A DNA stretch of 63,943 nt, counting the filler, from Nemertoderma westbladi (taxonomy: Eukaryota > Animalia > Xenacoelomorpha): the NCBI GenBank assembly GCA_032718475.1. It is 3 parts of 3 records of this genome, joined end to end, with 100 filler letters (N's around TTAATTAATTAA, not from the genome) between each part and the next. Parts side by side here need not be neighbours in the genome. Positions count along the whole stretch, not along the records: positions 1 to 30,174 come from JAUCBJ010001031.1; 2 more parts are not named here. One strand, given 5' to 3'. The notes beneath the pieces are model-generated. The model was given only the letters and a program-made list of their open reading frames with translations. It was not told the origin of the DNA and did no database searches. Both the position numbers and the translations under genes were made by a program. Positions 1,230 to 30,274 of the stretch are shown one piece after another. Each line of letters begins with the position of its first letter. The first letter of the stretch is position 1.

Positions 1230-2481
1230 TGTAAAAGCTTTTACTGAATTGTCCGGTTATTTTTCCTTATTTTTCCCGTAAAGTACTCTGTAGTTGGTTT
1301 ACCAGGCATAAAAAGGCCGTGTCCTTGCTGTACTGGTGTTTTAGCGGACATAAGAGCTATTTCTTCTGTATTTGTACTTTAGAGGACATAATCCGTAATT
1401 CCGTGACGTAAAAGCTCGATACTCTTGAAAACAGTGTCGCTACCATGACGACGGCTAGCAGCTGATATTGCCACGTCGACGTTTCTTTGTTTCTCTGTTC
1501 TCTCGTTGTTCAGGTTGACCAATCAGAGCGTTTGTTGTCTTTGTGTTGGAGGTATATACAGAAACTCAGTAGTTCAGTGTTATGTTTTTGCCCAGAGCCT
1601 AAGAACCGGCTTTGGCACCTCCGTGTTTTCAGTTTTTAGTCTTACACTAGTAGGTTTAATTATAAAGGGCATATATCCTTTAACTGACATACCGGTACTG
1701 ACATACCGGTACTAACATACCGATCAAACTCATGGAATCACTGCTGACTGATGATACATCCTGACTGCTGAAACATTGCAAACTCATAGCAATCAGTGTT
1801 CAGTTGTTGTTTTATACTGCTATTTACTGTCAGTTCTTCATAATATGGTTGATGAATTATTATATTTGGAATAACGATAAATAACCCCGAAACCCAATAT
1901 TCTTGATATACCGAAGGTAAGAGAGAAAGGTTACCAATAACGATTGTGACTTATGTTAAAGTGGTTTGAAGTGAATCTAATGTTATTTGATAGACCCTAC
2001 ATGAGTCAGCCTGTGTTCCTTTTATATGTGACTAAAATCAGTGAAGATTGGCAGATTAGTGTGCAGTATTGTGCAGCATTGTGTATGAGTGAGTCTGTTA
2101 AAGAAGCAATTCCTAAAGAATGCGCCATATATGTGAATTATAATTAAGCCATATCGTTGTGAGTAGTTTAAGTCATAACTCTGTTTATATAGATAAAGCG
2201 CCACGTCCTAAAGGAACTGTTAATATTCCCGAAGGTGAATAATATTGTCAGAGATTATATAATACTGTCAGTCGAATAATACATTAGGCTTACATAGCAA
2301 TAAAATTAAACCGTCGAACCCAATCTCCCGGGAATATCCAGCGGGTGAATGGTCGCGCACGGATTGGTTTCGACTAGTGTAGTGAATCAAATACTTGTCA
2401 TAGACTAAAAACTGATTTAATATCTAGAAGACATCTTAATTTGGTGGGTTAAACTGCCAAAAGTCTGAAAGCGCGAACAAT
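1230..2481 (+). mobile_element. LTR copy 1 (3'-end truncated)
   Basis: Starts TGTAAAAGCTTTT like the copies at 47474 and 51762; ~1590-2481 is colinear with ~52130-52949; the terminal ...TTTACA is missing. Confidence 0.65.
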
Positions 2482-4329
2482 CATTAATTAAATTATTGAC
2501 TTCAATAGAAGTCAACTCTGGGTCAGTACCCGATTTACCCTGCAAACGAAGTGAAGCTTTGTTAATCTGCTTGGTAAACCGGCTCTTCAAGTTACCACAC
2601 ACCTTTCTATAGTTCGAAACAGTTAATGGCTCTGCTGTAGTAGGCATTATGATAATTAATTAATTTATTATTCTACAAAATTACAGTTTGTATTATAATC
2701 TAAAAATAATATTATTAAGAATATAATCAAGAACAATGGCTTGGGTCACCATGGTTCTATTAGAAGAACGTGACGGACACTTACACACATTTAAACATAT
2801 TAAACTAAAACACACGCTTGGATACATTCCGCACTTACTGTAACAGACTGTACTGTATATACAGTACACGTAGTACACGATACTGTATACGCGTACGTAG
2901 GAAATTCATTCATACTAACTAGCATGGCATAAAAGAAAGGGGGGCACCGTGTAAGAACGTAACAGCCACCACCCGCGGGATAAATCCCGCGAACCTCACT
3001 GCAGGTCCCAAATGACCCGAGAGGTTCTCAAGAAGGTACGTCCGGCTTCCAAAATGACAGACGTCCTTATACACAACATTATAAAGAACAAGAAACATAC
3101 ATAACGTATGAATTTCCTACACACACGTACTGTACTGTACATCACATGTACACCACGCCACTGAGCAGTGCACGGAACATACCAAAACGTTGCCAATAAA
3201 ATATATCTAAACATGACTCAAAGGATGGAACATAAACAAACATGTACAGATAAATACAAATCCGATATTACTATTGAGACTGAAAATTTATAAGATCCAA
3301 TACGAAGGAATCACTACACGTATTTTAGTGTAAAATGCGGAACTAATATCGCATTTCGTTTATGTAGTTAGTGTGTGATTTTCTAACTTGTTTAAAATAA
3401 TCCGGACTATAATTAGGGAGAATTAACGTATTTATACCTTATCTAAAAGGCTAAAGCATTGGCAATATTTAGGCCCATTATCGTGACAAACGAATAAATA
3501 ACAGATCGGATTTATATTTATACTGACCATGACATATCAAGGGTGAAATCACTAATACTAATTAATATACTATCGCCTTGGGGCGAACAGGAAGATACCG
3601 GGACGAAACCGAGTAGGGATCGAAGTGACAGCCGTCGCTGAATAAACAGGCTGCGGTCTTCATAGATACCAGGTGATTTCCCGCCAGGCGTTCGTCCTTA
3701 TTGCGTCCTCCACGTCATTCCGAGAGAAACTCCGGTGACCCAAGACTTCGCCCTTTAGTGACTAAGGGCGACCATGCTTCTCATAACAAGTTTATAAGAA
3801 AATAACTAAACCAAATCTCATTATAATTGCCGTAAGAGTGGCGCTAAAATACGGTAACTTGTCCCGTATTCTCTGGAAAATATAGCCGGATACCAAATAT
3901 ACAAATGAATCAAATAAAAGGATAAAGAATAACGAAATATTAAATATATTATTAACGATATTAGATAGTCGTTAATATTACTAGCAAAAAACAAACAATG
4001 AATATTATTTTTACTCAACTCTAAAAGCTAATCAATGATACATAGCAAAACAGAGCTGTAATTGATTTTGAGAGTAGCCAATCACAGATTAGACATTCCC
4101 AATAGTACCATTAGCTAAGCTTCATATAAACAGCTGTTTGTATAGAGTAACAAGAATTCTCTACCTAATTATAATTAGAGCATATCCCTTGGCGTGAGCA
4201 AAGCTCCGAAGGGAAACGATAACCAATAATGAACACTATGATAATAATACACATGCGACTGGACAGCACAATTATAACTTTACAACCTATAAATTTGATT
4301 TGAAATAAAGACTTATTTGACAAGGTGCG

Positions 4330-6526: not shown

Positions 6527-6687
6527 ATGAAGCTAACTGATACAGTGGTTCGAAGTTTTCACGTTGCTAAAGTTTTCAGAGAGAACGCGGAACGAATTAA
6601 TTCCATAGATTTCTCACACAATGGTGAAACTTTGATATCCAGCAGTGATGATGATTCAATTGTTATCTATGATTGTCAAACTGGAAC
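6527..6687 (+). CDS. WDR82: WD repeat-containing protein 82 (SET1/COMPASS Swd2 homologue), exon 1
   Basis: [50 protein letters not shown] matches the WDR82 N-terminus; donor GTAAGT at 6688 (phase 2). Confidence 0.95.
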
Positions 6688-7181
6688 GTAAGTCAGTAAG
6701 TTGTCTTGCACCCAGCTGCCCAGCCCAGCGGCCACCGCCAACATCCTTTCAAGTCATTTATCAAATAAGGCTGTGGCTAGGCGAGGACAGGAGGAGGCCC
6801 TCCGCCCGCCCTACCTACACAACTACTGCCATATCAGCTTCTACAGTTCTGCAGTTCTATGCAAGGTGCCCTAGCCACTGGCACTGAGCCATATACAAAT
6901 TACAATACTATTTGGCTATTGCTGTATTGGCCAGCCGGCAGCCCAGCAGTTCTGAATTTTATTTCATTCAATCGTTATTCCCTGAAATCAAATCACATCA
7001 GCAATTAATGTATCAAATGTATGTAACATGCTGACATGTGGTAACATAGTTATAGGGACCCAATATAACATATGGCAGTATGGGGGTTACGTCTGTACGT
7101 TTGATCCGAAGTAACTTTCTCTCTGTCACCCTATTGCTATTCTTATTCTTATTACTATTACTGTATTACTCATTGTTGCAG

Positions 7182-7279
7182 GCCAAAGAAGACCTTATAC
7201 AGCAAGAAGTATGGAGTGGACTTCATTCGCTATACGCACAGTCAGACTACAGTCATTTATAGTTCAAATAAAGTTGATG
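7182..7279 (+). CDS. WDR82: WDR82 exon 2
   Basis: ttgcag acceptor; [32 protein letters not shown]; donor GTACGT at 7280 (phase 1). Confidence 0.95.
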
Positions 7280-7871: not shown

Positions 7872-8022
7872 ATACTATTCGATATCTTTCTCTCCACGAC
7901 AATAAGTACATACGCTACTTTCCCGGACACACGAAGAAAGTGGTTGCCATGTCAATGTCTCCAACCGATGATACGTTCCTCTCGGGGTCTCTAGATAAAA
8001 CTCTTCGATTATGGGACCTCAG
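7872..8022 (+). CDS. WDR82: WDR82 exon 3 (no downstream exons in this contig)
   Basis: ttttacag acceptor; [51 protein letters not shown]; donor GTAATT at 8023 (phase 2). Confidence 0.95.
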
Positions 8023-8203
8023 GTAATTTCCTCTTTCCATCCCATTAGGGGGGGGGGGGGGGGGGGGGCGTGGTAGATTTTTCAATTACAATCCCCTCTA
8101 GTGCAGATTTTATGAGGATTTCAAAACTTCAAACCGTTTGTTAACAGCTAATGTAATTCAAAAGTTATGGGTGATATGTTAACCTTACTTTGTGTAAGTA
8201 TAG

Positions 8204-11200
8204 GTAAATGTACTACCGATATGTTTGTTTAGGTAAATGTACAACCGATATGTTTGTTTAGGTAAATGTACAACCGATATGTTTGTTTAGGTAAATGTAC
8301 TACCGATATGTTTGTTTAGGTAAATGTACTACCGATATGTTTGTTTAGGTAAATGTACAACCGATATGTTTGTTTAGGTAAATGTACTACCGATATGTTT
8401 GTTTAGGTAAATGTACTACCGATATGTTTGTTTAGGTAAATGTCACACTACCGATATGTTTGTTTAGGTAAATGTACAACCGATATGTTTGTTTAGGTAA
8501 ATGTACTACCGATATGTTTGTTTAGGTAAATGTACTACCGATATGTTTGTTTAGGTAAATGTACAACCGATATGTTTGTTTAGGTAAATGTACAACCGAT
8601 ATGTTTGTTTAGGTAAATGTACTACCGATATGTTTGTTTAGGTAAATGTACAACCGATATGTTTGTTTAGGTAAATGTACAACCGATATGTTTGTTTAGG
8701 TAAATGTACAACCGATATGTTTGTTTAGGTAAATGTACAACCGATATGTTTGTTTAGGTAAATGTACAACCGATATGTTTGTTTAGGTAAATGTACTACC
8801 GATATGTTTGTTTAGGTAAATGTACTACCGATATGTTTGTTTAGGTAAATGTACAACCGATATGTTTGTTTAGGTAAATGTACTACCGATATGTTTGTTT
8901 AGGTAAATGTACTACCGATATGTTTGTTTAGGTAAATGTACAACCGATATGTTTGTTTAGGTAAATGTACAACCGATATGTTTGTTTAGGTAAATGTACA
9001 ACCGATATGTTTGTTTAGGTAAATGTACTACCGATATGTTTGTTTAGGTAAATGTACTACCGATATGTTTGTTTAGGTAAATGTACAACCGATATGTTTG
9101 TTTAGGTAAATGTACAACCGATATGTTTGTTTAGGTAAATGTACAACCGATATGTTTGTTTAGGTAAATGTACTACCGATATGTTTGTTTAGGTAAATGT
9201 ACTACCGATATGTTTGTTTAGGTAAATGTACAACCGATATGTTTGTTTAGGTAAATGTACAACCGATATGTTTGTTTAGGTAAATGTACTACCGATATGT
9301 TTGTTTAGGTAAATGTACACGGACTACCGATATGTTTGTTTAGGTAAATGTACTACCGATATGTTTGTTTAGGTAAATGTACAACCGATATGTTTGTTTA
9401 GGTAAATGTACTACCGATATGTTTGTTTAGGTAAATGTACAACGGACTACCGATATGTTTGTTTAGGTAAATGTACAACCGATATGTTTGTTTAGGTAAA
9501 TGTACTACCGATATGTTTGTTTAGGTAAATGTACTACCGATATGTTTGTTTAGGTAAATGTACTACCGATATGTTTGTTTAGGTAAATGTCACGACTACC
9601 GATATGTTTGTTTAGGTAAATGTACTACCGATATGTTTGTTTAGGTAAATGTACAACCGATATGTTTGTTTAGGTAAATGTACTACCGATATGTTTGTTT
9701 AGGTAAATGTACTACCGATATGTTTGTTTAGGTAAATGTACAACCGATATGTTTGTTTAGGTAAATGTACTACCGATATGTTTGTTTAGGTAAATGTACT
9801 ACCGATATGTTTGTTTAGGTAAATGTCACGACTACCGATATGTTTGTTTAGGTAAATGTACAACCGATATGTTTGTTTAGGTAAATGTACTACCGATATG
9901 TTTGTTTAGGTAAATGTACTACCGATATGTTTGTTTAGGTAAATGTACTACCGATATGTTTGTTTAGGTAAATGTAACGACTACCGATATGTTTGTTTAG
10001 GTAAATGTACAACCGATATGTTTGTTTAGGTAAATGTACAACCGATATGTTTGTTTAGGTAAATGTACTACCGATATGTTTGTTTAGGTAAATGTACTAC
10101 CGATATGTTTGTTTAGGTAAATGTACAACCGATATGTTTGTTTAGGTAAATGTACTACCGATATGTTTGTTTAGGTAAATGTACTACCGATATGTTTGTT
10201 TAGGTAAATGTACACTACCGATATGTTTGTTTAGGTAAATGTACAACCGATATGTTTGTTTAGGTAAATGTACTACCGATATGTTTGTTTAGGTAAATGT
10301 ACAACCGATATGTTTGTTTAGGTAAATGTACTACCGATATGTTTGTTTAGGTAAATGTACAACCGATATGTTTGTTTAGGTAAATGTACTACCGATATGT
10401 TTGTTTAGGTAAATGTACAACCGATATGTTTGTTTAGGTAAATGTACTACCGATATGTTTGTTTAGGTAAATGTACTACCGATATGTTTGTTTAGGTAAA
10501 TGTACTACCGATATGTTTGTTTAGGTAAATGTACTACCGATATGTTTGTTTAGGTAAATGTACAACCGATATGTTTGTTTAGGTAAATGTACTACCGATA
10601 TGTTTGTTTAGGTAAATGTACTACCGATATGTTTGTTTAGGTAAATGTACTACCGATATGTTTGTTTAGGTAAATGTACAACCGATATGTTTGTTTAGGT
10701 AAATGTACTACCGATATGTTTGTTTAGGTAAATGTACAACCGATATGTTTGTTTAGGTAAATGTACAACCGATATGTTTGTTTAGGTAAATGTACAACCG
10801 ATATGTTTGTTTAGGTAAATGTACAACCGATATGTTTGTTTAGGTAAATGTACTACCGATATGTTTGTTTAGGTAAATGTACTACCGATATGTTTGTTTA
10901 GGTAAATGTACTACCGATATGTTTGTTTAGGTAAATGTACAACCGATATGTTTGTTTAGGTAAATGTACAACCGATATGTTTGTTTAGGTAAATGTACAA
11001 CCGATATGTTTGTTTAGGTAAATGTACAACCGATATGTTTGTTTAGGTAAATGTACAACCGATATGTTTGTTTAGGTAAATGTACAACCGATATGTTTGT
11101 TTAGGTAAATGTACAACCGATATGTTTGTTTAGGTAAATGTACTACCGATATGTTTGTTTAGGTAAATGTACTACCGATATGTTTGTTTAGGTAAATGTA

Positions 11201-14200
11201 CAACCGATATGTTTGTTTAGGTAAATGTACAACCGATATGTTTGTTTAGGTAAATGTACAACCGATATGTTTGTTTAGGTAAATGTACAACCGATATGTT
11301 TGTTTAGGTAAATGTACAACCGATATGTTTGTTTAGGTAAATGTACAACCGATATGTTTGTTTAGGTAAATGTACAACCGATATGTTTGTTTAGGTAAAT
11401 GTACAACCGATATGTTTGTTTAGGTAAATGTACTACCGATATGTTTGTTTAGGTAAATGTACAACCGATATGTTTGTTTAGGTAAATGTACAACCGATAT
11501 GTTTGTTTAGGTAAATGTACAACCGATATGTTTGTTTAGGTAAATGTACAACCGATATGTTTGTTTAGGTAAATGTACTACCGATATGTTTGTTTAGGTA
11601 AATGTACAACCGATATGTTTGTTTAGGTAAATGTACAACCGATATGTTTGTTTAGGTAAATGTACAACCGATATGTTTGTTTAGGTAAATGTACAACCGA
11701 TATGTTTGTTTAGGTAAATGTACAACCGATATGTTTGTTTAGGTAAATGTACTACCGATATGTTTGTTTAGGTAAATGTACAACCGATATGTTTGTTTAG
11801 GTAAATGTACAACCGATATGTTTGTTTAGGTAAATGTACAACCGATATGTTTGTTTAGGTAAATGTACTACCGATATGTTTGTTTAGGTAAATGTACAAC
11901 CGATATGTTTGTTTAGGTAAATGTACAACCGATATGTTTGTTTAGGTAAATGTACTACCGATATGTTTGTTTAGGTAAATGTACAACCGATATGTTTGTT
12001 TAGGTAAATGTACTACCGATATGTTTGTTTAGGTAAATGTACTACCGATATGTTTGTTTAGGTAAATGTACTACCGATATGTTTGTTTAGGTAAATGTAC
12101 AACCGATATGTTTGTTTAGGTAAATGTACAACCGATATGTTTGTTTAGGTAAATGTACAACCGATATGTTTGTTTAGGTAAATGTACAACCGATATGTTT
12201 GTTTAGGTAAATGTACAACCGATATGTTTGTTTAGGTAAATGTACAACCGATATGTTTGTTTAGGTAAATGTACAACCGATATGTTTGTTTAGGTAAATG
12301 TACAACCGATATGTTTGTTTAGGTAAATGTACAACCGATATGTTTGTTTAGGTAAATGTACAACCGATATGTTTGTTTAGGTAAATGTACAACCGATATG
12401 TTTGTTTAGGTAAATGTACAACCGATATGTTTGTTTAGGTAAATGTACAACCGATATGTTTGTTTAGGTAAATGTACAACCGATATGTTTGTTTAGGTAA
12501 ATGTACAACCGATATGTTTGTTTAGGTAAATGTACAACCGATATGTTTGTTTAGGTAAATGTACAACCGATATGTTTGTTTAGGTAAATGTACAACCGAT
12601 ATGTTTGTTTAGGTAAATGTACAACCGATATGTTTGTTTAGGTAAATGTACAACCGATATGTTTGTTTAGGTAAATGTACAACCGATATGTTTGTTTAGG
12701 TAAATGTACAACCGATATGTTTGTTTAGGTAAATGTACAACCGATATGTTTGTTTAGGTAAATGTACTACCGATATGTTTGTTTAGGTAAATGTACAACC
12801 GATATGTTTGTTTAGGTAAATGTACAACCGATATGTTTGTTTAGGTAAATGTACAACCGATATGTTTGTTTAGGTAAATGTACAACCGATATGTTTGTTT
12901 AGGTAAATGTACAACCGATATGTTTGTTTAGGTAAATGTACAACCGATATGTTTGTTTAGGTAAATGTACAACCGATATGTTTGTTTAGGTAAATGTACA
13001 ACCGATATGTTTGTTTAGGTAAATGTACAACCGATATGTTTGTTTAGGTAAATGTACAACCGATATGTTTGTTTAGGTAAATGTACAACCGATATGTTTG
13101 TTTAGGTAAATGTACAACCGATATGTTTGTTTAGGTAAATGTACTACCGATATGTTTGTTTAGGTAAATGTACAACCGATATGTTTGTTTAGGTAAATGT
13201 ACAACCGATATGTTTGTTTAGGTAAATGTACAACCGATATGTTTGTTTAGGTAAATGTACTACCGATATGTTTGTTTAGGTAAATGTACTACCGATATGT
13301 TTGTTTAGGTAAATGTACAACCGATATGTTTGTTTAGGTAAATGTACAACCGATATGTTTGTTTAGGTAAATGTACAACCGATATGTTTGTTTAGGTAAA
13401 TGTACAACCGATATGTTTGTTTAGGTAAATGTACTACCGATATGTTTGTTTAGGTAAATGTACAACCGATATGTTTGTTTAGGTAAATGTACAACCGATA
13501 TGTTTGTTTAGGTAAATGTACAACCGATATGTTTGTTTAGGTAAATGTACAACCGATATGTTTGTTTAGGTAAATGTACAACCGATATGTTTGTTTAGGT
13601 AAATGTACTACCGATATGTTTGTTTAGGTAAATGTACAACCGATATGTTTGTTTAGGTAAATGTACAACCGATATGTTTGTTTAGGTAAATGTACAACCG
13701 ATATGTTTGTTTAGGTAAATGTACAACCGATATGTTTGTTTAGGTAAATGTACAACCGATATGTTTGTTTAGGTAAATGTACAACCGATATGTTTGTTTA
13801 GGTAAATGTACAACCGATATGTTTGTTTAGGTAAATGTACAACCGATATGTTTGTTTAGGTAAATGTACAACCGATATGTTTGTTTAGGTAAATGTACAA
13901 CCGATATGTTTGTTTAGGTAAATGTACTACCGATATGTTTGTTTAGGTAAATGTACAACCGATATGTTTGTTTAGGTAAATGTACAACCGATATGTTTGT
14001 TTAGGTAAATGTACAACCGATATGTTTGTTTAGGTAAATGTACAACCGATATGTTTGTTTAGGTAAATGTACAACCGATATGTTTGTTTAGGTAAATGTA
14101 CAACCGATATGTTTGTTTAGGTAAATGTACTACCGATATGTTTGTTTAGGTAAATGTACAACCGATATGTTTGTTTAGGTAAATGTACAACCGATATGTT

Positions 14201-15673
14201 TGTTTAGGTAAATGTACAACCGATATGTTTGTTTAGGTAAATGTACTACCGATATGTTTGTTTAGGTAAATGTACTACCGATATGTTTGTTTAGGTAAAT
14301 GTACAACCGATATGTTTGTTTAGGTAAATGTACAACCGATATGTTTGTTTAGGTAAATGTACTACCGATATGTTTGTTTAGGTAAATGTACTACCGATAT
14401 GTTTGTTTAGGTAAATGTACTACCGATATGTTTGTTTAGGTAAATGTACAACCGATATGTTTGTTTAGGTAAATGTACAACCGATATGTTTGTTTAGGTA
14501 AATGTACAACCGATATGTTTGTTTAGGTAAATGTACAACCGATATGTTTGTTTAGGTAAATGTACAACCGATATGTTTGTTTAGGTAAATGTACAACCGA
14601 TATGTTTGTTTAGGTAAATGTACTACCGATATGTTTGTTTAGGTAAATGTACAACCGATATGTTTGTTTAGGTAAATGTACAACCGATATGTTTGTTTAG
14701 GTAAATGTACTACCGATATGTTTGTTTAGTAAATGTACTACCGATATGTTTGTTTAGGTAAATGTACTACCGATATGTTTGTTTAGGTAAATGTACTACC
14801 GATATGTTTGTTTAGGTAAATGTACTACCGATATGTTTGTTTAGGTAAATGTACAACCGATATGTTTGTTTAGGTAAATGTACAACCGATATGTTTGTTT
14901 AGGTAAATGTACAACCGATATGTTTGTTTAGGTAAATGTACAACCGATATGTTTGTTTAGGTAAATGTACAACCGATATGTTTCTTTAGGTAAATGTACA
15001 ACCGATATGTTTGTTTAGGTAAATGTACAACCGATATGTTTGTTTAGGTAAATGTACAACCGATATGTTTGTTTAGGTAAATGTACTACCGATATGTTTG
15101 TTTAGGTAAATGTACTACCGATATGTTTGTTTAGGTAAATGTACTACCGATATGTTTGTTTAGGTAAATGTACAACCGATATGTTTGTTTAGGTAAATGT
15201 ACTACCGATATGTTTGTTTAGGTAAATGTACTACCGATATGTTTGTTTAGGTAAATGTACAACCGATATGTTTGTTTAGGTAAATGTACAACCGATATGT
15301 TTGTTTAGGTAAATGTACAACCGATATGTTTGTTTAGGTAAATGTACAACCGATATGTTTGTTTAGGTAAATGTACTACCGATATGTTTGTTTGGGTAAA
15401 TGTACAACCGATATGTTTGTTTAGGTAAATGTACAACCGATATGTTTGTTTAGGTAAATGTACAACCGATATGTTTGTTTAGGTAAATGTACTACCGATA
15501 TGTTTGTTTAGTTAAATGTACTACCGATATGTTTGTTTAGGTAAATGTACAACCGATATGTTTGTTTAGGTAAATGTACAACCGATATGTTTGTTTAGGT
15601 AAATGTACTACCGATATGTTTGTTTAGGTAAATGTACAACCGATATGTTTGTTTAGGTAAATGTACAACCGAT
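8204..15673 (+). repeat. 29-bp tandem array (~257 copies) of the ACO2 3' splice-site junction
   Basis: Unit GTAAATGTAC[A/T]ACCGAT-ATGTTTGTTTAG; the last copy runs directly into the aconitase exon (GKCTTDH). Confidence 0.98.
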
Positions 15674-15781
15674 CATATATCAGCTGCTGGGCCTTGGCTG
15701 AAATACCGCGGCCATCTGGACAACATATCTAACAACTTCTGTATTGGCGCCATAAATATAGAGAACGACCAAGCCAACAAG
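15657..15781 (+). CDS. ACO2: Mitochondrial aconitate hydratase, penultimate exon
   Basis: (G)[41 protein letters not shown], the aconitase swivel-domain motif; acceptor AG 15655-15656 (phase 1), first donor GTTAGT at 15782 (phase 0). Confidence 0.93.
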
Positions 15782-18700
15782 GTTAGTCGAAATACAGAGA
15801 ACGACCAAGCCAACAAGGTTAGTCGAAATATAGAGAACGACCATGCCAACAAGGTTAGTCGAAATATAGAGAACGACCAAGCCAACAAGGTTAGTCGAAA
15901 TATAGAGAACGACCAAGCCAACAAGGTTAGTCGAAATATAGAGAACGACCAAGCCAACAAGGTTAGTCGAAATACAGAGAACGACCAAGCAAACAAGGTT
16001 AGTCGAAATATAGAGAACGACCAAGCAAACAAGGTTAGTCGAAATATAGAGAACGACCAAGCAAACAAGGTTAGTCGAAATATAGAGAACGACCAAGCAA
16101 ACAAGGTTAGTCGAAATATAGAGAACGACCATGCCAACAAGGTTAGTCGAAATATAGAGAACGACCAAGCCAACAAGGTTAGTCGAAATACAGAGAACGA
16201 CCAAGCAAACAAGGTTAGTCGAAATATAGTGAACGACCAAGCCAACAAGGTTAGTCGAAATATAGAGAACGACCATGCCAACAAGGTTAGTCGAAATATA
16301 GAGAACGACCAAGCAAACAAGGTTAGTCGAAATATAGAGAACGACCAAGCCAACAAGGTTAGTCGAAATATAGAGAACGACCAAGCCAACAAGGTTAGTC
16401 GAAATATAGAGAACGACCAAGCCAACAAGGTTAGTCGAAATACAGAGAACGACCAAGCAAACAAGGTTAGTCGAAATATAGAGAACGACCAAGCAAACAA
16501 GGTTAGTCGAAATATAGAGAACGACCAAGCAAACAAGGTTAGTCGAAATATAGAGAACGACCAAGCAAACAAGGTTAGTCGAAATATAGAGAACGACCAT
16601 GCCAACAAGGTTAGTCGAAATATAGAGAGCGACCAAGCAAACAAGGTTAGTCGAAATATAGAGAACGACCAAGCAAACAAGGTTAGTCGAAATATAGAGA
16701 ACGACCAAGCCAACAAGGTTAGTCGAAATATAGAGAACGACCAAGCCAACAAGGTTAGTCGAAATATAGAGAACGACCAAGCCAACAAGGTTAGTCGAAA
16801 TATAGAGAACGACCAAGCCAACAAGGTTAGTCGAAATATAGAGAACGACCAAGCAAACAAGGTTAGTCGAAATATAGAGAACGACCAAGCAAACAAGGTT
16901 GGTCGAAATATAGAGAACGACCAAGCAAACAAGGTTAGTCGAAATATAGAGAACGACCAAGCAAACAAGGTTAGTCGAAATATAGAGAACGACCAAGCAA
17001 ACAAGGTTAGTCAAAATATAGAGAACGACCATGCCAACAAGGTTAGTCGAAATATAGAGAACGACCATGCCAACAAGGTTAGTCGAAATTTAGAGAACGA
17101 CCATGCCAACAAGGTTAGTCGAAATATAGAGAACGACCAAGCAAACAAGGTTAGTCGAAATATAGAGAACGACCATGCCAACAAGGTTAGTCGAAATATA
17201 GAGAGCGACCAAGCAAACAAGGTTAGTCGAAATATAGAGAACGACCAAGCAAACAAGGTTGGTCGAAATATAGAGAACGACCAAGCAAACAAGGTTAGTC
17301 GAAATATAGAGAACGACCAAGCAAACAAGGTTAGTCGAAATATAGAGAGCGACCAAGCAAACAAGGTTAGTCGAAATATAGAGAACGACCAAGCAAACAA
17401 GGTTAGTCGAAATATAGAGAACGACCAAGCAAACAAGGTTAGTCGAAATATAGAGAGCGACCAAGCAAACAAGGTTAGTCGAAATATAGAGAACGACCAA
17501 GCAAACAAGGTTGGTCGAAATATAGAGAACGACCAAGCAAACAAGGTTAGTCGAAATATAGAGAACGACCAAGCAAACAAGGTTAGTCGAAATATAGAGA
17601 ACGACCAAGCAAACAAGGTTAGTCGAAATATAGAGAACGACCATGCCAACAAGGTTAGTCGAAATATAGAGAACGACCAAGCCAACAAGGTTAGTCGAAA
17701 TATAGAGAACGACCAAGCCAACAAGGTTAGTCGAAATATAGAGAACGACCAAGCAAACAAGGTTAGTCGAAATATAGAGAACGACCAAGCAAACAAGGTT
17801 AGTCGAAATATAGAGAGCGACCAAGCAAACAAGGTTAGTCGAAATATAGAGAACGACCAAGCAAACAAGGTTGGTCGAAATATAGAGAACGACCAAGCAA
17901 ACAAGGTTAGTCGAAATATAGAGAACGACCAAGCAAACAAGGTTAGTCGAAATATAGAGAACGACCAAGCAAACAAGGTTAGTCGAAATATAGAGAACGA
18001 CCATGCCAACAAGGTTAGTCGAAATATAGAGAACGACCATGCCAACAAGGTTAGTCGAAATTTAGAGAACGACCATGCCAACAAGGTTAGTCGAAATATA
18101 GAGAACGACCATGCAAACAAGGTTAGTCGAAATATAGAGAACGACCATGCCAACAAGGTTAGTCGAAATATAGAGAGCGACCAAGCAAACAAGGTTAGTC
18201 GAAATATAGAGAACGACCAAGCAAACAAAGTTGGTCGAAATATAGAGAACGACCAAGCAAACAAGGTTAGTCGAAATATAGAGAACGACCATGCCAACAA
18301 GGTTAGTCGAAATATAGAGAACGACCAAGCAAACAAGGTTAGTCGAAATATAGAGAACGACCATGCCAACAAGGTTAGTCGAAATATAGAGAACGACCAA
18401 GCAAACAAGGTTAGTCGAAATATAGAGAACGACCATGCCAACAAGGTTAGTCGAAATATAGAGAACGACCATGCCAACAAGGTTAGTCGAAATATAGAGA
18501 ACGACCAAGCAAACAAGGTTAGTCGAAATATAGAGAACGACCAAGCCAATAAGGTTAGTCGAAATATAGAGAACGACCAAGCAAACAAGGTTAGTCGAAA
18601 TTTAGAGAACGACCATGCCAACAAGGTTAGTCGAAATATAGAGAACGACTAAGCAAACAAGGTTAGTCGAAATATAGAGAACGACCAAGCAAACAAGGTT

Positions 18701-21700
18701 AGTCGAAATATAGAGAACGACCAAGCCAATAAGGTTAGTCGAAATATAGAGAACGACCAAGCAAACAAGGTTAGTCGAAATATAGAGAACGACCAAGCAA
18801 ACAAGGTTAGTCGAAATATAGAGAACGACCAAGCAAACAAGGTTAGTCGAAATATAGAGAACGACCAAGCAAACAAGGTTAGTCGAAATATAGAGAACGA
18901 CCAAGCCAACAAGGTTAGTCGAAATATAGAGAACGACCAAGCCAACAAGGTTAGTCGAAATATAGAGAACGACCAAGCCAACAAGGTTAGTCGAAATATA
19001 GAGAACGACCAAGCAAACAAGGTTAGTCGAAATATAGAGAACGACCAAGCAAACAAGGTTAGTCGAAATATAGAGAACGACCAAGCCAACAAGGTTAGTC
19101 GAAATATAGAGAACGACCAGCCAACAAGGTTAGTCGAAATATAGAGAACGACCAGCCAACAAGGTTAGTCGAAATATAGAGAACGACCAAGCAAACAAGG
19201 TTAGTCGAAATATAGAGAACGACCAAGCCAACAAGGTTAGTCGAAATATAGAGAACGACCAAGCAAACAAGGTTAGTCGAAATATAGAGAACGACCAAGC
19301 AAACAAGGTTAGTCGAAATATAGAGAACGACCAAGCAAACAAGGTTAGTCGAAATATAGAGAACGACCAAGCCAACAAGGTTAGTCGAAATATAGAGAAC
19401 GACCAAGCAAACAAGGTTAGTCGAAATATAGAGAACGACCAAGCAAACAAGGTTAGTCGAAATATAGAGAACGACCAAGCAAACAAGGTTAGTCGAAATA
19501 TAGAGAACGACCAAGCCAACAAGGTTAGTCGAAATATAGAGAACGACCAAGCAAACAAGGTTAGTCGAAATATAGAGAACGACCAAGCAAACAAGGTTAG
19601 TCGAAATATAGAGAACGACCAAGCCAATAAGGTTAGTCGAAATATAGAGAACGACCAAGCAAACAAGGTTAGTCGAAATATAGAGAACGACCAAGCAAAC
19701 AAGGTTAGTCGAAATATAGAGAACGACCAAGCAAACAAGGTTAGTCGAAATATAGAGAACGACCAAGCAAACAAGGTTAGTCGAAATATAGAGAACGACC
19801 AAGCCAACAAGGTTAGTCGAAATATAGAGAACGACCAAGCAAACAAGGTTAGTCGAAATATAGAGAACGACCAAGCAAACAAGGTTAGTCGAAATATAGA
19901 GAACGACCAAGCAAACAAGGTTAGTCGAAATATAGAGAACGACCAAGCCAACAAGGTTAGTCGAAATATAGAGAACGACCAAGCAAACAAGGTTAGTCGA
20001 AATATAGAGAACGACCAAGCCAACAAGGTTAGTCGAAATATAGAGAACGACCAAGCAAACAAGGTTAGTCGAAATATAGAGAACGACCAAGCAAACAAGG
20101 TTAGTCGAAATATAGAGAACGACCAAGCCAACAAGGTTAGTCGAAATATAGAGAACGACCAAGCAAACAAGGTTAGTCGAAATATAGAGAACGACCAAGC
20201 AAACAAGGTTAGTCGAAATATAGAGAACGACCAAGCAAACAAGGTTAGTCGAAATATAGAGAACGACCAAGCAAACAAGGTTAGTCGAAATATAGAGAAC
20301 GACCAAGCAAACAAGGTTAGTCGAAATATAGAGAACGACCAAGCAAACAAGGTTAGTCGAAATATAGAGAACGACCAAGCAAACAAGGTTAGTCGAAATA
20401 TAGAGAACGACCAAGCAAACAAGGTTAGTCGAAATATAGAGAACGACCAAGCAAACAAGGTTAGTCGAAATATAGAGAACGACCAAGCCAACAAGGTTAG
20501 TCGAAATATAGAGAACGACCAAGCAAACAAGGTTAGTCGAAATATAGAGAACGACCAAGCAAACAAGGTTAGTCGAAATATAGAGAACGACCAAGCCAAC
20601 AAGGTTAGTCGAAATATAGAGAACGACCAAGCAAACAAGGTTAGTCGAAATATAGAGAACGACCAAGCAAACAAGGTTAGTCGAAATATAGAGAACGACC
20701 AAGCAAACAAGGTTAGTCGAAATATAGAGAACGACCAAGCAAACAAGGTTAGTCGAAATATAGAGAACGACCAAGCAAACAAGGTTAGTCGAAATATAGA
20801 GAACGACCAAGCAAACAAGGTTAGTCGAAATATAGAGAACGACCAAGCAAACAAGGTTAGTCGAAATATAGAGAACGACCAAGCAAACAAGGTTAGTCGA
20901 AATATAGAGAACGACCAAGCAAACAAGGTTAGTCGAAATATAGAGAACGACCAAGCAAACAAGGTTAGTCGAAATATAGAGAACGACCAAGCAAACAAGG
21001 TTAGTCGAAATATAGAGAACGACCAAGCAAACAAGGTTAGTCGAAATATAGAGAACGACCAAGCAAACAAGGTTAGTCGAAATATAGAGAACGACCAAGC
21101 AAACAAGGTTAGTCGAAATATAGAGAACGACCAAGCAAACAAGGTTAGTCGAAATATAGAGAACGACCAAGCAAACAAGGTTAGTCGAAATATAGAGAAC
21201 GACCAAGCAAACAAGGTTAGTCGAAATATAGAGAACGACCAAGCAAACAAGGTTAGTCGAAATATAGAGAACGACCAAGCAAACAAGGTTAGTCGAAATA
21301 TAGAGAACGACCAAGCCAACAAGGTTAGTCGAAATATAGAGAACGACCAAGCAAACAAGGTTAGTCGAAATATAGAGAACGACCAAGCAAACAAGGTTAG
21401 TCGAAATATAGAGAACGACCAAGCAAACAAGGTTAGTCGAAATATAGAGAACGACCAAGCAAACAAGGTTAGTCGAAATATAGAGAACGACCAAGCAAAC
21501 AAGGTTAGTCGAAATATAGAGAACGACCAAGCCAACAAGGTTAGTCGAAATATAGAGAACGACCAAGCAAACAAGGTTAGTCGAAATATAGAGAACGACC
21601 AAGCAAACAAGGTTAGTCGAAATATAGAGAACGACCAAGCAAACAAGGTTAGTCGAAATATAGAGAACGACCAAGCAAACAAGGTTAGTCGAAATATAGA

Positions 21701-24700
21701 GAACGACCAAGCAAACAAGGTTAGTCGAAATATAGAGAACGACCAAGCAAACAAGGTTAGTCGAAATATAGAGAACGACCAAGCAAACAAGGTTAGTCGA
21801 AATATAGAGAACGACCAAGCAAACAAGGTTAGTCGAAATATAGAGAACGACCAAGCCAACAAGGTTAGTCGAAATATAGAGAACGACCAAGCAAACAAGG
21901 TTAGTCGAAATATAGAGAACGACCAAGCAAACAAGGTTAGTCGAAATATAGAGAACGACCAAGCCAACAAGGTTAGTCGAAATATAGAGAACGACCAAGC
22001 AAACAAGGTTAGTCGAAATATAGAGAACGACCAAGCAAACAAGGTTAGTCGAAATATAGAGAACGACCAAGCAAACAAGGTTAGTCGAAATATAGAGAAC
22101 GACCAAGCAAACAAGGTTAGTCGAAATATAGAGAACGACCAAGCAAACAAGGTTAGTCGAAATATAGAGAACGACCAAGCAAACAAGGTTAGTCGAAATA
22201 TAGAGAACGACCAAGCAAACAAGGTTAGTCGAAATATAGAGAACGACCAAGCCAACAAGGTTAGTCGAAATATAGAGAACGACCAAGCCAACAAGGTTAG
22301 TCGAAATATAGAGAACGACCAAGCAAACAAGGTTAGTCGAAATATAGAGAACGACCAAGCAAACAAGGTTAGTCGAAATATAGAGAACGACCAAGCAAAC
22401 AAGGTTAGTCGAAATATAGAGAACGACCAAGCAAACAAGGTTAGTCGAAATATAGAGAACGACCAAGCAAACAAGGTTAGTCGAAATATAGAGAACGACC
22501 AAGCAAACAAGGTTAGTCGAAATATAGAGAACGACCAAGCAAACAAGGTTAGTCGAAATATAGAGAACGACCAAGCAAACAAGGTTAGTCGAAATATAGA
22601 GAACGACCAAGCAAACAAGGTTAGTCGAAATATAGAGAACGACCAAGCAAACAAGGTTAGTCGAAATATAGAGAACGACCAAGCAAACAAGGTTAGTCGA
22701 AATATAGAGAACGACCAAGCCAACAAGGTTAGTCGAAATATAGAGAACGACCAAGCAAACAAGGTTAGTCGAAATATAGAGAACGACCAAGCAAACAAGG
22801 TTAGTCGAAATATAGAGAACGACCAAGCCAACAAGGTTAGTCGAAATATAGAGAACGACCAAGCAAACAAGGTTAGTCGAAATATAGAGAACGACCAAGC
22901 AAACAAGGTTAGTCGAAATATAGAGAACGACCAAGCCAACAAGGTTAGTCGAAATATAGAGAACGACCAAGCCAACAAGGTTAGTCGAAATATAGAGAAC
23001 GACCAAGCAAACAAGGTTAGTCGAAATATAGAGAACGACCAAGCAAACAAGGTTAGTCGAAATATAGAGAACGACCAAGCAAACAAGGTTAGTCGAAATA
23101 TAGAGAACGACCAAGCAAACAAGGTTAGTCGAAATATAGAGAACGACCAAGCCAACAAGGTTAGTCGAAATATAGAGAACGACCAAGCAAACAAGGTTAG
23201 TCGAAATATAGAGAACGACCAAGCAAACAAGGTTAGTCGAAATATAGAGAACGACCAAGCAAACAAGGTTAGTCGAAATATAGAGAACGACCAAGCAAAC
23301 AAGGTTAGTCGAAATATAGAGAACGACCAAGCCAACAAGGTTAGTCGAAATATAGAGAACGACCACGCAAACAAGGTTAGTCGAAATATAGAGAACGACC
23401 AAGCAAACAAGGTTAGTCGAAATATAGAGAACGACCAAGCCAACAAGGTTAGTCGAAATATAGAGAACGACCAAGCAAACAAGGTTAGTCGAAATATAGA
23501 GAACGACCAAGCAAACAAGGTTAGTCGAAATATAGAGAACGACCAAGCCAACAAGGTTAGTCGAAATATAGAGAACGACCAAGCCAACAAGGTTAGTCGA
23601 AATATAGAGAACGACCAAGCCAACAAGGTTAGTCGAAATATAGAGAACGACCATGCCAACAAGGTTAGTCGAAATATAGAGAACGACCAAGCAAACAAGG
23701 TTAGTCGAAATATAGAGAACGACCAAGCCAACAAGGTTAGTCGAAATATAGAGAACGACCAAGCAAACAAGGTTAGTCGAAATATAGAGAACGACCAAGC
23801 AAACAAGGTTAGTCGAAATATAGAGAACGACCAAGCCAACAAGGTTAGTCGAAATATAGAGAACGACCAAGCAAACAAGGTTAGTCGAAATATAGAGAAC
23901 GACCAAGCCAACAAGGTTAGTCGAAATATAGAGAACGACCAAGCCAACAAGGTTAGTCGAAATTTAGAGAACGACCATGCCAACAAGGTTAGTCGAAATA
24001 TAGAGAACGACCAAGCAAACAAGGTTAGTCGAAATATAGAGAACGACCAAGCCAACAAGGTTAGTCGAAATATAGAGAACGACCAAGCAAACAAGGTTAG
24101 TCGAAATATAGAGAACGACCAAGCCAACAAGGTTAGTCGAAATATAGAGAACGACCACGCAAACAAGGTTAGTCGAAATATAGAGAACGACCAAGCAAAC
24201 AAGGTTAGTCGAAATATAGAGAACGACCAAGCCAACAATGTTAGTCGAAATATAGAGAACGACCAAGCCAACAAGGTTAGTCGAAATATAGAGAACGACC
24301 ATGCCAACAAGGTTAGTCGAAATATAGAGAGCGACCAAGCAAACAAGGTTAGTCGAAATATAGAGAACGACCAAGCAAACAAGGTTGGTCGAAATATAGA
24401 GAACGACCAAGCCAACAAGGTTAGTCGAAATATAGAGAACGACCAAGCCAACAATGTTAGTCGAAATATAGAGAGCGACCAAGCAAACAAGGTTAGTCGA
24501 AATGTAGAGAACGACCAAGCAAACAAGGTTAGTCGAAATATAGAGAACGACCAAGCCAACAAGGTTAGTCGAAATATAGAGAACGACCAAGCAAACAAGG
24601 TTAGTCGAAATATAGAGAACGACCAAGCCAACAAGGTTAGTCGAAATATAGAGAACGACCAAGCAAACAAGGTTAGTCGAAATATAGAGAACGACCAAGC

Positions 24701-27206
24701 CAACAAGGTTAGTCGAAATATAGAGAACGACCACGCAAACAAGGTTAGTCGAAATATAGAGAACGACCAAGCAAACAAGGTTAGTCGAAATATAGAGAAC
24801 GACCAAGCAAACAAGGTTAGTCGAAATATAGAGAACGACCAAGCAAACAAGGTTAGTCGAAATATAGAGAACGACCAAGCCAACAAGGTTAGTCGAAATA
24901 TAGAGAACGACCACGCAAACAAGGTTAGTCGAAATATAGAGAACGACCACGCAAACAAGGTTAGTCGAAATATAGAGAACGACCAAGCCAACAAGGTTAG
25001 TCGAAATATAGAGAACGACCAAGCCAACAAGGTTAGTCGAAATATAGAGAACGACCAAGCCAACAAGGTTAGTCGAAATATAGAGAACGACCAAGCCAAC
25101 AAGGTTAGTCGAAATATAGAGAACGACCAAGCCAACAAGGTTAGTCGAAATATAGAGAACGACCAAGCAAACAAGGTTAGTCGAAATATAGAGAACGACC
25201 AAGCAAACAAGGTTAGTCGAAATATAGAGAACGACCAAGCAAACAAGGTTAGTCGAAATATAGAGAACGACCAAGCAAACAAGGTTAGTCGAAATATAGA
25301 GAACGACCATGCCAACAAGGTTAGTCGAAATATAGAGAGCGACCAAGCAAACAAGGTTAGTCGAAATATAGAGAACGACCAAGCAAACAAGGTTGGTCGA
25401 AATATAGAGAACGACCAAGCCAACAAGGTTAGTCGAAATATAGAGAACGACCAAGCCAACAAGGTTAGTCGAAATATAGAGAACGACCAAGCAAACAAGG
25501 TTAGTCGAAATATAGAGAACGACCAAGCCAACAAGGTTAGTCGAAATATAGAGAACGACCAAGCCAACAAGGTTAGTCGAAATATAGAGAACGACCAAGC
25601 CAACAAGGTTAGTCGAAATATAGAGAACGACCAAGCAAACAAGGTTAGTCGAAATATAGAGAACGACCAAGCCAACAAGGTTAGTCGAAATATAGAGAAC
25701 GACCATGCCAACAAGGTTAGTCGAAATATAGAGAACGACCAAGCAAACAAGGTTAGTCGAAATATAGAGAACGACCAAGCCAACAAGGTTAGTCGAAATA
25801 TAGAGAACGACCAAGCAAACAAGGTTAGTCGAAATATAGAGAACGACCACGCAAACAAGGTTAGTCGAAATATAGAGAACGACCAAGCAAACAAGGTTAG
25901 TCGAAATATAGAGAACGACCAAGCAAACAAGGTTAGTCGAAATATAGAGAACGACCATGCCAACAAGGTTAGTCGAAATATAGAGAACGACCAAGCAAAC
26001 AAGGTTAGTCGAAATATAGAGAACGACCAAGCAAACAAGGTTAGTCGAAATATAGAGAACGACCAAGCCAACAAGGTTAGTCGAAATATAGAGAGCGACC
26101 AAGCAAACAAGGTTAGTCGAAATATAGAGAACGACCAAGCAAACAAGGTTGGTCGAAATATAGAGAACGACCAAGCAAACAAGGTTAGTCGAAATATAGA
26201 GAACGACCAAGCCAACAATGTTAGTCGAAATATAGAGAACGACCAAGCAAACAAGGTTAGTCGAAATATAGAGAACGACCAAGCCAACAAGGTTAGTCGA
26301 AATATAGAGAACGACCAAGCCAACAAGGTTAGTCGAAATATAGAGAACGACCAAGCCAACAATGTTAGTCGAAATATAGAGAACGACCAAGCAAACAAGG
26401 TTAGTCGAAATATAGAGAACGACCAAGCCAACAAGGTTAGTCGAAATATAGAGAACGACCATGCCAACAAGGTTAGTCGAAATATAGAGAACGACCAAGC
26501 AAACAAGGTTAGTCGAAATATAGAGAACGACCAAGCCAACAAGGTTAGTCGAAATATAGAGAACGACCAAGCCAACAATGTTAGTCGAAATATAGAGAAC
26601 GACCAAGCCAACAATGTTAGTCGAAATATAGAGAACGACCAAGCAAACAAGGTTAGTCGAAATATAGAGAACGACCAAGCAAACAAGGTTAGTCGAAATA
26701 TAGAGAACGACCAAGCAAACAAGGTTAGTCGAAATATAGAGAACGACCAAGCCAACAAGGTTAGTCGAAATATAGAGAACGACCAAGCAAACAAGGTTAG
26801 TCGAAATATAGAGAACGACCAAGCCAACAAGGTTAGTCGAAATATAGAGAGCGACCAAGCAAACAAGGTTAGTCGAAATATAGAGAACGACCAAGCAAAC
26901 AAGGTTAGTCGAAATATAGAGAACGACCAAGCCAACAAGGTTAGTCGAAATATAGAGAACGACCAAGCAAACAAGGTTAGTCGAAATATAGAGAACGACC
27001 AAGCAAACAAGGTTAGTCGAAATATAGATAACGACCAAGCCAACAAGGTTAGTCGAAATATAGAGAACGACCAAGCCAACAGGGTTAGTCGAAATATAGA
27101 GAACGACCAAGCAAACAAGGTTAGTCGAAATATAGAGAACGACCAAGCAAACAAGGTTAGTCGAAATATAGATAACGACCAAGCCAACAAGGTTAGTCGA
27201 AATATA
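15754..27206 (+). repeat. 36-bp tandem array (~318 copies) of the ACO2 5' splice-site junction
   Basis: Unit ATAGAGAACGACCAAGC[A/C]AACAAG|GTTAGTCGAAAT; the first copy is the true exon end. Confidence 0.98.
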
Positions 27207-27269
27207 AAGAAGGAACTAAAGTAAAAAGGTGTTGTCGAAGTAGAGAATGAATCACTTGATTTAATTTAT

Positions 27270-27425
27270 AATATCAATTTATAAACATATGTTATATATT
27301 TATATATTTATTATTATTATTATTTTATTTATATAATATATATATATATAATATTAATATAATAATATTATAATATTAATATAATAATATAATAATATTA
27401 ATATTATTATTATTTATATATATTT
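27270..27425. repeat. AT-only low-complexity tract
   Basis: TAT/ATA/TAA simple repeats with almost no G or C. Confidence 0.8.
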
Positions 27426-27555
27426 CCTACCAGCTACAGTTATGTTGAACAGTTAGCCGAAGCCGGAGGCGACCCAATGGCTCCTCCTTTCGATAGCTGC
27501 TACTCCTATCCCTTGTTTTCCTATCTCCTTGTTTTCTATCTTCCTATCTAGGCGC

Positions 27556-28247
27556 TACTATCTGCTACCCGAAGGTAGGGGTGGGCGCTACTCCTATCTG
27601 CTACCCGAGGGTAGGGGTGGGCGCTACTCCTATCTGCTACCCGAAGGTAGGGGAGGGCGCTACTCCTATCTGCTACCTGAAGGTAGGGGTGGGCGCTACT
27701 CCTATCTGCTACCCGAGGGTAGGGGTGGGCGCTACTCCTATCTGCTACCCGAAGGTAGGGGTGGGCGCTACTCCTATCTGCTACCCGAAGGTAGGGGTGG
27801 GCGCCACTCCTATCTGATACCCGAAGGTAGGGGTGGGCGCTACTCCTATCTGCTACCCGAGGGTAGGGGTGGGCGCTACTCCTATCTGCTACCCGAAGGT
27901 AGGGGTGGGCGCTACTCCTATCTGCTACCCGAGGGTAGGGGTGGGCGCTACTCCTATCTGCTACCCGAAGGTAGGGGTGGGCGCTACTCCTATCTGCTAC
28001 CCGAGGATAGGGGTGGGCGTTACTCCTATCTGCTACCCGAGGCTAGGGGTGGGCGCTACTCCTATCTGCTACCCAAGGGTAGGGGTGGGCGCTACTCCTA
28101 TCTGCTACCCGAGGGTAGGGGTGGGCGCTACTCCTATCTGCTACCCGAGGCTAGGGGTGGGCGCTACTCCTATCTGCTACCCGAGGGTAGGGGTGGGCGC
28201 TACTCCTATCTGCTACCCGAGGGTAGGGGTGGGCGCTACTCCTATCT
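27556..28247 (+). repeat. G-rich 36-bp minisatellite (~19 copies) in the ACO2 last intron
   Basis: Unit CTACTCCTATCTGCTACCCGA[A/G]GGTAGGGGTGGGCG. Confidence 0.95.
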
Positions 28248-28269
28248 ACTACTCCTATCCCTTGTTTTC

Positions 28270-28384
28270 CTCCCAGTAATTCAACTGGTGCTCATTTTAT
28301 CGACCCCAGTGGATGGACCCTGGCGGGGCTCGAACCTTCAACCCCGATTGTAAGCCTGGCGTTCAACCAACGAACTAAGCTACC
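28270..28384 (-). mobile_element. tRNA-derived SINE head
   Basis: Minus strand reads GGTAGCTTAGTTCGTTGG (A-box-like) ... GGTTCGAGCCC (B-box), followed by GGGGTCGATAAAATGAGCACCAG, which resembles a conserved SINE central domain. Confidence 0.6.
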
Positions 28385-28451
28385 CAGTCAGTTTCATTTA
28401 TGTTTTAATAGTCCTTTGTTTACAATTTGTAATTTATTATAATTAATTCAG

Positions 28452-28907
28452 GTGAAGAATGTTTTAACTGGAGACTATGAGGGAGTACCAGACACCGCTC
28501 GCAAGTACAAGGCGGCCAATATCCCGTGGGTTGTAGTCGGAGACGAGAACTATGGAGAAGGGAGTAGTCGCGAACACGCAGCATTGGAACCCAGACACCT
28601 CGGGGGCAGAGCTATCATTGTGAAAAGTTTCGCGAGAATACACGAAACCAACCTCAAGAAACAAGGCGTTCTGCCACTCACATTCAGTTCGCCGTCCCAT
28701 TACGATAAAGTCAGACCGGACGATAGGATCTCTCTCCTAGGATTGGCTAATCTGTCTCCAGGGAAACAGGTCGAATGCGTGCTGACTCACAGCGATGGAA
28801 CCAAAGACTCTATTATGCTGAATCAATCGATGAATCAGGGACAGATTGAGTGGTTCAAGGCTGGCAGCGCTCTTAACAAAATGGCTCGCGACTTGGCTGG
28901 TAAATAG
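28452..28907 (+). CDS. ACO2: Mitochondrial aconitate hydratase, terminal exon
   Basis: ttcag acceptor; VKNVLTG...[43 protein letters not shown]...WFKAGSALN; in frame with the previous exon. Confidence 0.97.
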
Positions 28908-30174: not shown

Positions 30175-30274
30175 NNNNNNNNNNNNNNNNNNNNNNNNNN
30201 NNNNNNNNNNNNNNNNNNTTAATTAATTAANNNNNNNNNNNNNNNNNNNNNNNNNNNNNNNNNNNNNNNNNNNN
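30175..30274. other. Artificial contig spacer
   Basis: N44 + TTAATTAATTAA (stops in all six frames) + N44. Confidence 0.97.

Follow-up and report, generated by a model that had tools for sequence, protein, structure and literature searches.

How can the spliceosome find both ends of one short exon when each end is accompanied by hundreds of near-identical copies of itself? This question is raised by a locus of Nemertoderma westbladi (Xenacoelomorpha) in the genome assembly GCA_032718475.1. The window considered here, i.e. the whole stretch of DNA that was analysed, comprises 63,943 nucleotides, of which positions 1 to 30,174 come from the record JAUCBJ010001031.1. In that record, a 125-nt exon of the mitochondrial aconitase gene ACO2 is preceded by a 29-bp satellite built from its own acceptor junction and followed by a 36-bp satellite built from its own donor junction. 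Tandem copies of either exon boundary with normal splicing are a named class, the mirages, according to the available text of PMC3087553 and PMC3902484. The answer favoured here, at a probability of about 0.7, is that the two satellites are mirage minisatellites, derived from the acceptor and the donor of a single expressed ACO2 exon and tolerated through exon definition and first-donor choice.

Array periods, copy numbers, and match percentages were obtained from Tandem Repeats Finder. Exons were identified by a match to the Aconitase_C profile and by tblastn with five queries each for ACO2 and for WDR82, the gene found to the left of the arrays. Contigs of several sequencing runs were compared with the window, of which X1 and X3 are DNA from two samples and X4 is RNA, as read from the WDR82 introns that X4 skips at GT..AG joints. 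These are contig-level data, not raw reads, and the statements on runs X1 to X4 cover the contig pieces listed, not complete tables. Summed contig depth over-counts and is not equal to copy number. The loose ends of X4 contigs were translated by hand and compared with homologues.

The aconitase exon and its two arrays

The exon at 15657-15781 (+ strand) is the penultimate coding exon of ACO2, entered in phase 1 and left in phase 0. Its 41 encoded residues belong to the C-terminal domain of aconitase, where they correspond to positions 10-50 of the Aconitase_C profile, and the exon aligns by tblastn with residues 589-631. The last coding exon (28452-28907, +) provides 151 residues and the stop, and covers profile positions 53-130. 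Both have an open frame and align with homologues at 76-79% identity and with at most one gap; their closest relatives are animal mitochondrial aconitases at identities of at most 78% among the matches listed. The intron between them is 12,670 nt long, of which about 600 nt are unique once the arrays are collapsed. The spacing from KCTTDH to NYGEGSSRE is 73 residues in the window and in 117 of 120 homologues, the remaining three being one with 72 residues, one that is fused, and one without a motif. Given this constancy, 12-residue insertions between the two motifs are probably selected against, and accuracy would matter there. The five tblastn queries found no ACO2 exon before residue 589 in the window, from which the first 588 residues are absent. 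Weak ACO2 matches at 8155-8220 (3 of 5 queries, E 1.4-9.6 on the window) were rejected as an exon, as they consist mostly of the GKCTTD of the first repeat unit.

The acceptor array (8201-15673, +) is composed of about 257 units of 29 bp (256.7 copies, 97% matches), each with 12 nt of intron and 17 nt of exon. Within 8201-15656 there are 256 AG sites, and 254 of these occur as TAG/GTAAAT (the slash marks the splice point), the innermost being the real one; 162 units are exact copies of the real 29-mer. Every unit presents AG/GT with a pyrimidine tract before it and donor-like sequence after it, and every unit is closed by an in-frame stop, with the result that splicing at any of the other 253 sites would be followed by a stop 9-21 codons on. 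The unit contains no YTNAY branch motif, and no clean microhomology seed like that of the donor array is visible for it. In the window, the array begins mid-unit. Seven units at 8433-10200 are 31-36 bp long and look as if a single variant with a 7-nt insertion recurred in them incompletely, which may be noise of the consensus. A comparison of the 29-bp unit with metagenome contigs gave 0 matches.

The donor array (15754-27211, +) repeats a 36-bp unit of exon end and intron start 318.3 times, with 97% matches. It contains 318 GT donors at 15782-27192, and 303 of them carry the real 9-mer. Exon and intron share a microhomology of 7 nt at a distance of 36 bp, and the breakpoint of the unit falls within it; for this reason, the split into 24 nt of exon and 12 nt of intron is one of several equivalent readings, from 28+8 to 21+15. 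Use of outer donors would add 12 residues per unit, and the frame stays open for 79 units. There is no protective mutation in the second donor. A small hairpin forms within the unit (15763-15798), with the donor paired in the real site and the decoys alike; 9 and 20 of 500 shuffles fold equally well, and a folding z of -4.8 is inflated by periodicity. The idea that RNA structure masks the decoy donors and so selects the real one was rejected, since 306 of the 317 decoys are predicted to be more accessible than it. Neither unit has dispersed copies elsewhere in the window.

The initial annotation, made from the sequence, had described this 125-nt ACO2 exon together with an acceptor-junction satellite (12 + 17 nt, ~257 copies, ~7.5 kb) and a donor-junction satellite (24 + 12 nt, ~318 copies, ~11.4 kb). 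The exon is borne out by the Aconitase_C match, tblastn, and an identical RNA contig. The acceptor satellite is confirmed by Tandem Repeats Finder and by the site counts, and the donor satellite by Tandem Repeats Finder, with the proviso on its split given above.

Presence of the arrays in genomic DNA

Both units are high-copy in the DNA runs of two samples, X1 and X3, and neither array is therefore merely an assembly expansion of a few copies, a case that the initial annotation had named as refuting its reading. The unique WDR82 introns have a depth of 24-29 in X1 and 12-20 in X3. By comparison, the summed depth of the acceptor unit is 136,592 (X1) and 162,242 (X3), and that of the donor unit is 13,575 (X1) and 23,116 (X3). 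A further run, X2, gives 1,231 for the acceptor unit and 767 for the donor unit, with no single-copy reference. One 54-nt contig of X3 alone has a depth of 13,771, about 550-690 times the single-copy depth of 20-25. The donor unit is under-counted at 95% likeness, because the matched units are minor variants.

The order of the units was also considered. The two arrays contain 12 and 20 unit types in non-looping order, and neither has long duplicated unit blocks beyond those of shuffled arrays, the longest repeated block being 15 units in one (30 shuffles, mean 13.4, maximum 19) and 8 in the other (mean 7.7, maximum 9). Both have homogeneous cores and mixed edges, with non-major units making up 0.55/0.16/0.40 and 0.62/0.13/0.61 of edge, core, and edge, figures of qualitative value. 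Both satellites are thus real and common to two samples. The depth of the acceptor unit suggests more copies in X3 than in the window, contig depth not being allele length, and the acceptor satellite may be larger than the window shows.

With regard to the samples, X3 differs from the window at 1 position in 996 nt over WDR82 and, judged by this likeness, may be the window's own source. X1 differs by 7 substitutions and 14 gap letters in 817 nt and is a different haplotype. The ACO2 3' region is present in 5 of 8 listed runs from three studies. Run X5 contributed a single contig, which was uninformative.

Splice sites used in the mRNA

A single X4 contig of 1,885 nt matches 15655-15783 with 0 differences over 129 nt. 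Its upstream loose end reads ...VVLIKVK-G, like the homologue residues before GKC, and the downstream one corresponds to the first bases of the last exon (28452). In the X4 individual, the dominant ACO2 mRNA hence uses the innermost acceptor and the innermost donor. Over bins made up of array sequence alone, X4 has no cover, a gap to which no weight is given here. The initial annotation had counted an untranscribed copy among the threats to its reading; the exon sequence is in fact carried in a normal ACO2 mRNA. Its claim that the innermost sites are used stands for the dominant mRNA, but the strict proximity selection that it had added is not the sole route on the acceptor side, where the AG/GT units permit recursive re-splicing.

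The left flank and a suspected misjoin

The DNA to the left of the acceptor array is not ACO2 but exons 1-3 of WDR82, encoding residues 1-137, which had been overlooked in the first reading. Coding exon 1 (6527-6687, +) aligns by tblastn with residues 1-54 at 79-85% identity and ends at an X4 RNA joint from 6687 to 7182 (GT..AG). Exon 2 (7182-7279, +) is placed by homology and X4 RNA joints. Exon 3 (7872-8022, +) reaches residue 137 of about 313 by tblastn, with an X4 loose end behind 8024. Five tblastn queries found no WDR82 exon after exon 3 in the window. In X4, exon 3 runs on into SPTCQGVMHL, matching SPNCQGLMHL in homologues; WDR82 is therefore intact elsewhere, and its mRNA continues into a normal exon 4. 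A WDR82-ACO2 fusion protein was considered and rejected, as a stop follows at once when exon 3 is joined to the real acceptor, and as the WDR82 mRNA has its normal continuation.

Between exon 3 and the array lie a poly-G run (8048-8068) and a dispersed repeat (8069-8199), and, judged by DNA contig ends and depth, a chimeric join is likely within 8048-8200. The DNA contigs that come out of WDR82 intron 3 stop at 8068 (X1 record 7, X3 record 14), and depth is about 2,200-3,100 over 8038-8163. X3 record 16 agrees exactly with 8128-8199, after which its next 221 nt bear no resemblance to the window. Where array contigs run on to the left of 8201, the overhang consists of further array (7 contigs in X1, 1 in X3), and none of the listed pieces bridges 8199-8201. 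Moreover, one X3 contig enters the array from at least 255 nt of other unique sequence, which closes with the intronic portion of the unit, carrying a 5-nt insert, and has 0 matches within the window. This entry is how a junction duplication should begin, unlike the mid-unit start in the window. The join near 8200 is thus probably a chimera of WDR82 intron 3 and the ACO2 acceptor array, and the left flank is best regarded as unreliable; less likely, the genes are interleaved or the rearrangement is a private one. X3 record 16 may, however, stem from a further copy of the dispersed repeat. Because of the likely chimeric join, 257 is likely a minimum-type figure for the window contig and not a measured allele length.

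Relation to known systems

In the available text of PMC3087553 and PMC3902484, amphioxus mirages are known at Adh3, at the globins BflGb6 and BflGb9, at troponin C, and at PGBD5. According to the former, mirage units measure 10-160 bp, many keep AG/GT, and a homogenised core is combined with divergent edges. The ACO2 arrays resemble them in having boundary-spanning units of 29 and 36 bp with AG/GT kept, a normal dominant mRNA, and a uniform core with mixed edges. Boundary span, unit size, AG/GT retention, undisturbed dominant splicing, and core homogenisation, by which mirages are recognised, are accordingly all found here. The scale is different, with about 257 and 318 copies against 3-6 in BflGb6. 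Unlike the amphioxus cases, the arrays also occupy both ends of one 125-nt exon over 7.5 and 11.5 kb, in an essential metabolic gene and at 97% identity. The ACO2 pair are mirage minisatellites about 10-fold larger than the published cases compared.

Donor-spanning variable number tandem repeats (VNTRs) are described for five human genes, with 5-25 sites, in the available text of PMC1557585. These include F7 intron 7 (37 bp, 5-9 copies) and CBS intron 13 (31 bp, 15-20 copies), as well as IFI6/6-16 (25 pseudo-sites), LMNB2, and PDGF. In F7, only the most upstream of the identical donors is used, as was tested experimentally in that study. Similarly, the ACO2 donor array begins with a unit across the exon-intron boundary, continues with identical donors, and in the dominant form is spliced at the most upstream of them (15781 to 28452). 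It differs from the human VNTRs by more than 10 times as many donors, by a unit that is a multiple of three and open for 79 units, and by the paired acceptor array on the same exon. The acceptor units, in turn, are like the dual-specific AGGT arrays of UBC and VCX3A (PMC10809524, in its available text) in having AG/GT, a pyrimidine tract before it, and donor-like sequence after it. By contrast, the ACO2 acceptor array is intronic, non-coding, 29 nt in period, and out of frame with a stop, and its likeness to UBC and VCX3A is one of sequence. Amplification of an exon-intron segment is shared with the OVERMEGA megasatellites (bioRxiv 10.1101/2021.07.19.452908, in the part available), but their units are at least 90 bp and become coding multi-exon repeats, whereas the ACO2 units of 29-36 bp are spliced out. 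Intron gain by tandem duplication of an exonic AGGT segment was rejected as an origin, as the units include intron bases that the mRNA lacks, and as about 600 bp of the intron is unique after the arrays are collapsed.

The distinctive gene architecture that the initial annotation had held possible, if such arrays recurred genome-wide, is not borne out as something new, with mirages and the VNTRs of F7, CBS, IFI6, LMNB2, and PDGF already on record (PMC3087553 and PMC1557585, in the available text). In searches of open PMC and bioRxiv text, with most hits judged by their listings, hundreds of copies at both ends of one exon were not encountered.

Proposed mechanism

Each array probably arose as a separate local tandem duplication that then grew by slippage or unequal exchange, an origin suggested by the unit structure, the edge pattern, and the mirages of PMC3087553 (available text). 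The donor array would have been seeded at the 7-nt microhomology 36 bp apart. With regard to splicing, only the innermost acceptor would have a downstream exon and donor, 125 nt away, to pair with, and the first donor after the exon would win, as tested for human F7. Two safety nets may further assist. Use of an upstream acceptor would lead to a stop after 9-21 codons and to decay, and AG/GT at each site would permit re-splicing that ends at an unchanged junction. For the real acceptor, the branch point would now have to be supplied by array sequence.

Several observations weigh against this account. RNA support is one contig of one sample, contigs drop rare isoforms, and the X4 individual's own arrays are not directly seen. 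No DNA contig bridges the exon and the arrays, and their linkage in cis rests on the window contig, itself suspected of a misjoin. X3 is near-identical to the window and so perhaps not independent. In the worst case, with every contig taken as a single 31-mer, the acceptor unit amounts to 212 (X1) and 370 (X3) copies, or half of these if contigs were counted twice, and the donor unit to only 17 (X1) and 47 (X3). Additionally, two extra donors are used in IFI6 and CBS, where first-donor choice is not always strict (PMC1557585, available text).

Alternative explanations

Removal of the acceptor array could instead proceed stepwise, with an early AG being used, the donor AAG/GTAAAT recreated, and splicing repeated until the real exon is defined, although this is rather unlikely. 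In its favour, 254 units read TAG/GTAAAT, and with AAAG at the end of the upstream exon a donor would arise anew at each step. This donor matches the U1 consensus at 7 of 9 positions, the real donors in the window at 6-8 of 9. Tandem dual-specific AGGT sites are used stochastically in human UBC (PMC10809524, available text). However, no intermediate was seen among contigs, which are unable to show one, and, as re-splicing gives the same mRNA, the RNA contig fits direct and recursive splicing alike. Moreover, the exon starts with GT simply from its Gly-Lys codons, and the last ACO2 exon is also GT-initial with no array. Position +5 is A and not G, and the regenerated donor at the real exon must be silenced, so such a donor can stay unused. 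As a tentative picture drawn from the repeat units, the acceptor array might form a ladder of more than 250 recursive AG/GT ratchet points that would make wrong acceptor choices self-correcting, an unlikely but consequential idea. If true, it would explain amplification to satellite size inside an essential gene, and the ratchet ladder together with 317 in-frame decoy donors would enclose one exon that the spliceosome still finds exactly. Quite improbable, by comparison, is a non-functional duplicate or rearranged copy, in which the array-bearing ACO2 3' end would truly adjoin WDR82 intron 3 and an array-free ACO2 at another locus would be the source of the mRNA. Such a copy would suit the position of only the last two ACO2 exons behind the 5' half of WDR82, with the stop at the WDR82-ACO2 splice; the unique exon centre is without DNA cover, leaving copy number unreadable there, and an array-free donor would resemble the array exit in short contigs. 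Yet exon and RNA contig agree without a difference over 129 nt, the start of the next exon matches too, both exons are open and well conserved, X3 shows a more natural array entry plus a path that leaves the window at 8199, and the window is made up of short contigs chained together.

It is hardly credible that the arrays are an artefact of assembly or amplification, expanded from a duplication of a few copies. The probable misjoin near 8200 and the seven odd-length units in the left acceptor array would be in keeping with one, but both units are deep in runs of two samples and studies, and the diverse unit types follow no looping order; for the acceptor unit, this reading is largely refuted. 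A last proposal, that a genome process preferentially seeds tandem amplification at splice junctions and creates a genome-wide architecture, is doubtful. It is encouraged by the finding that, among the arrays larger than 400 bp in the window, 2 of 4 span a junction, for which the chance is P about 2e-4 on the whole collapsed window (post hoc), and by the statement that mirages are maybe general in cephalochordates (PMC3087553, available text). However, 8 of 10 located splice sites have no array, and a third, unrelated 36-bp array of 19 copies (27558-28252, Tandem Repeats Finder) lies off-junction in the same intron. On the assumption that the collapsed ACO2 stretch (726 bp) forms a local hot spot, the chance rises to P about 0.05, again post hoc, and the window was chosen for this very feature. 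Furthermore, purging of duplications wholly inside an essential exon could enrich junction-spanning survivors with no targeting. The ACO2 stretch is repeat-prone, and tolerated mirage minisatellites remain the preferred reading.

Other features of the stretch

The third array is bracketed by a 29-bp direct repeat (93%) at 27494-27522 and 28243-28271, which suggests a duplication origin. Convergent with ACO2 and cut by the contig end, 29295-30174 (-) carries an uninterrupted 292-codon frame resembling protein disulfide isomerase, with two thioredoxin-type domains and a KDEL end. A ribonucleotide reductase small subunit gene (RRM2) is located at 41243-43119 (+), with one intron (41846-42411) and no junction array. 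The best listed identities are 78% (ACO2 last exon), 85% (WDR82 exon 1), and 83% (RRM2), across many animal groups. A 338-codon open frame at 37304-38320 (-) has no Pfam match at E 0.01.

The stretch is a chain of short contigs with N-padded linkers. These linkers, with stops in six frames, occupy 30175-30274 and 50274-50373, so that three contigs stand end to end and neighbours across them are unrelated. A dispersed element is common to all three, 66-1242 matching 50522-51774, and 1812-2481 matching 52281-52949 and 47975-48661 (79%, 94%, and 71%). The three contigs therefore come from one organism. A 151-codon frame at 50375 in this element has no Pfam match. Fragments resembling non-LTR (long terminal repeat) retrotransposon endonuclease and reverse transcriptase, recognised by eye, occur at 34433-36500, 44281-45043, and 53482-57354. 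Additionally, a 12-bp minisatellite of 36 copies is present at 57364-57800, on no known junction.

Significance

The ACO2 arrays provide a practical warning that such repeats may sit at assembly misjoins and break gene models. They also enlarge the known scale of a little-studied repeat class roughly tenfold, with arrays at both ends of a single exon of an essential enzyme, and offer a strong natural test of splice-site choice among identical copies. Exon definition with first-donor scanning predicts no intermediates, whereas recursive splicing predicts joins from the upstream exon to internal units, and the variants among the units would show which copy was used.

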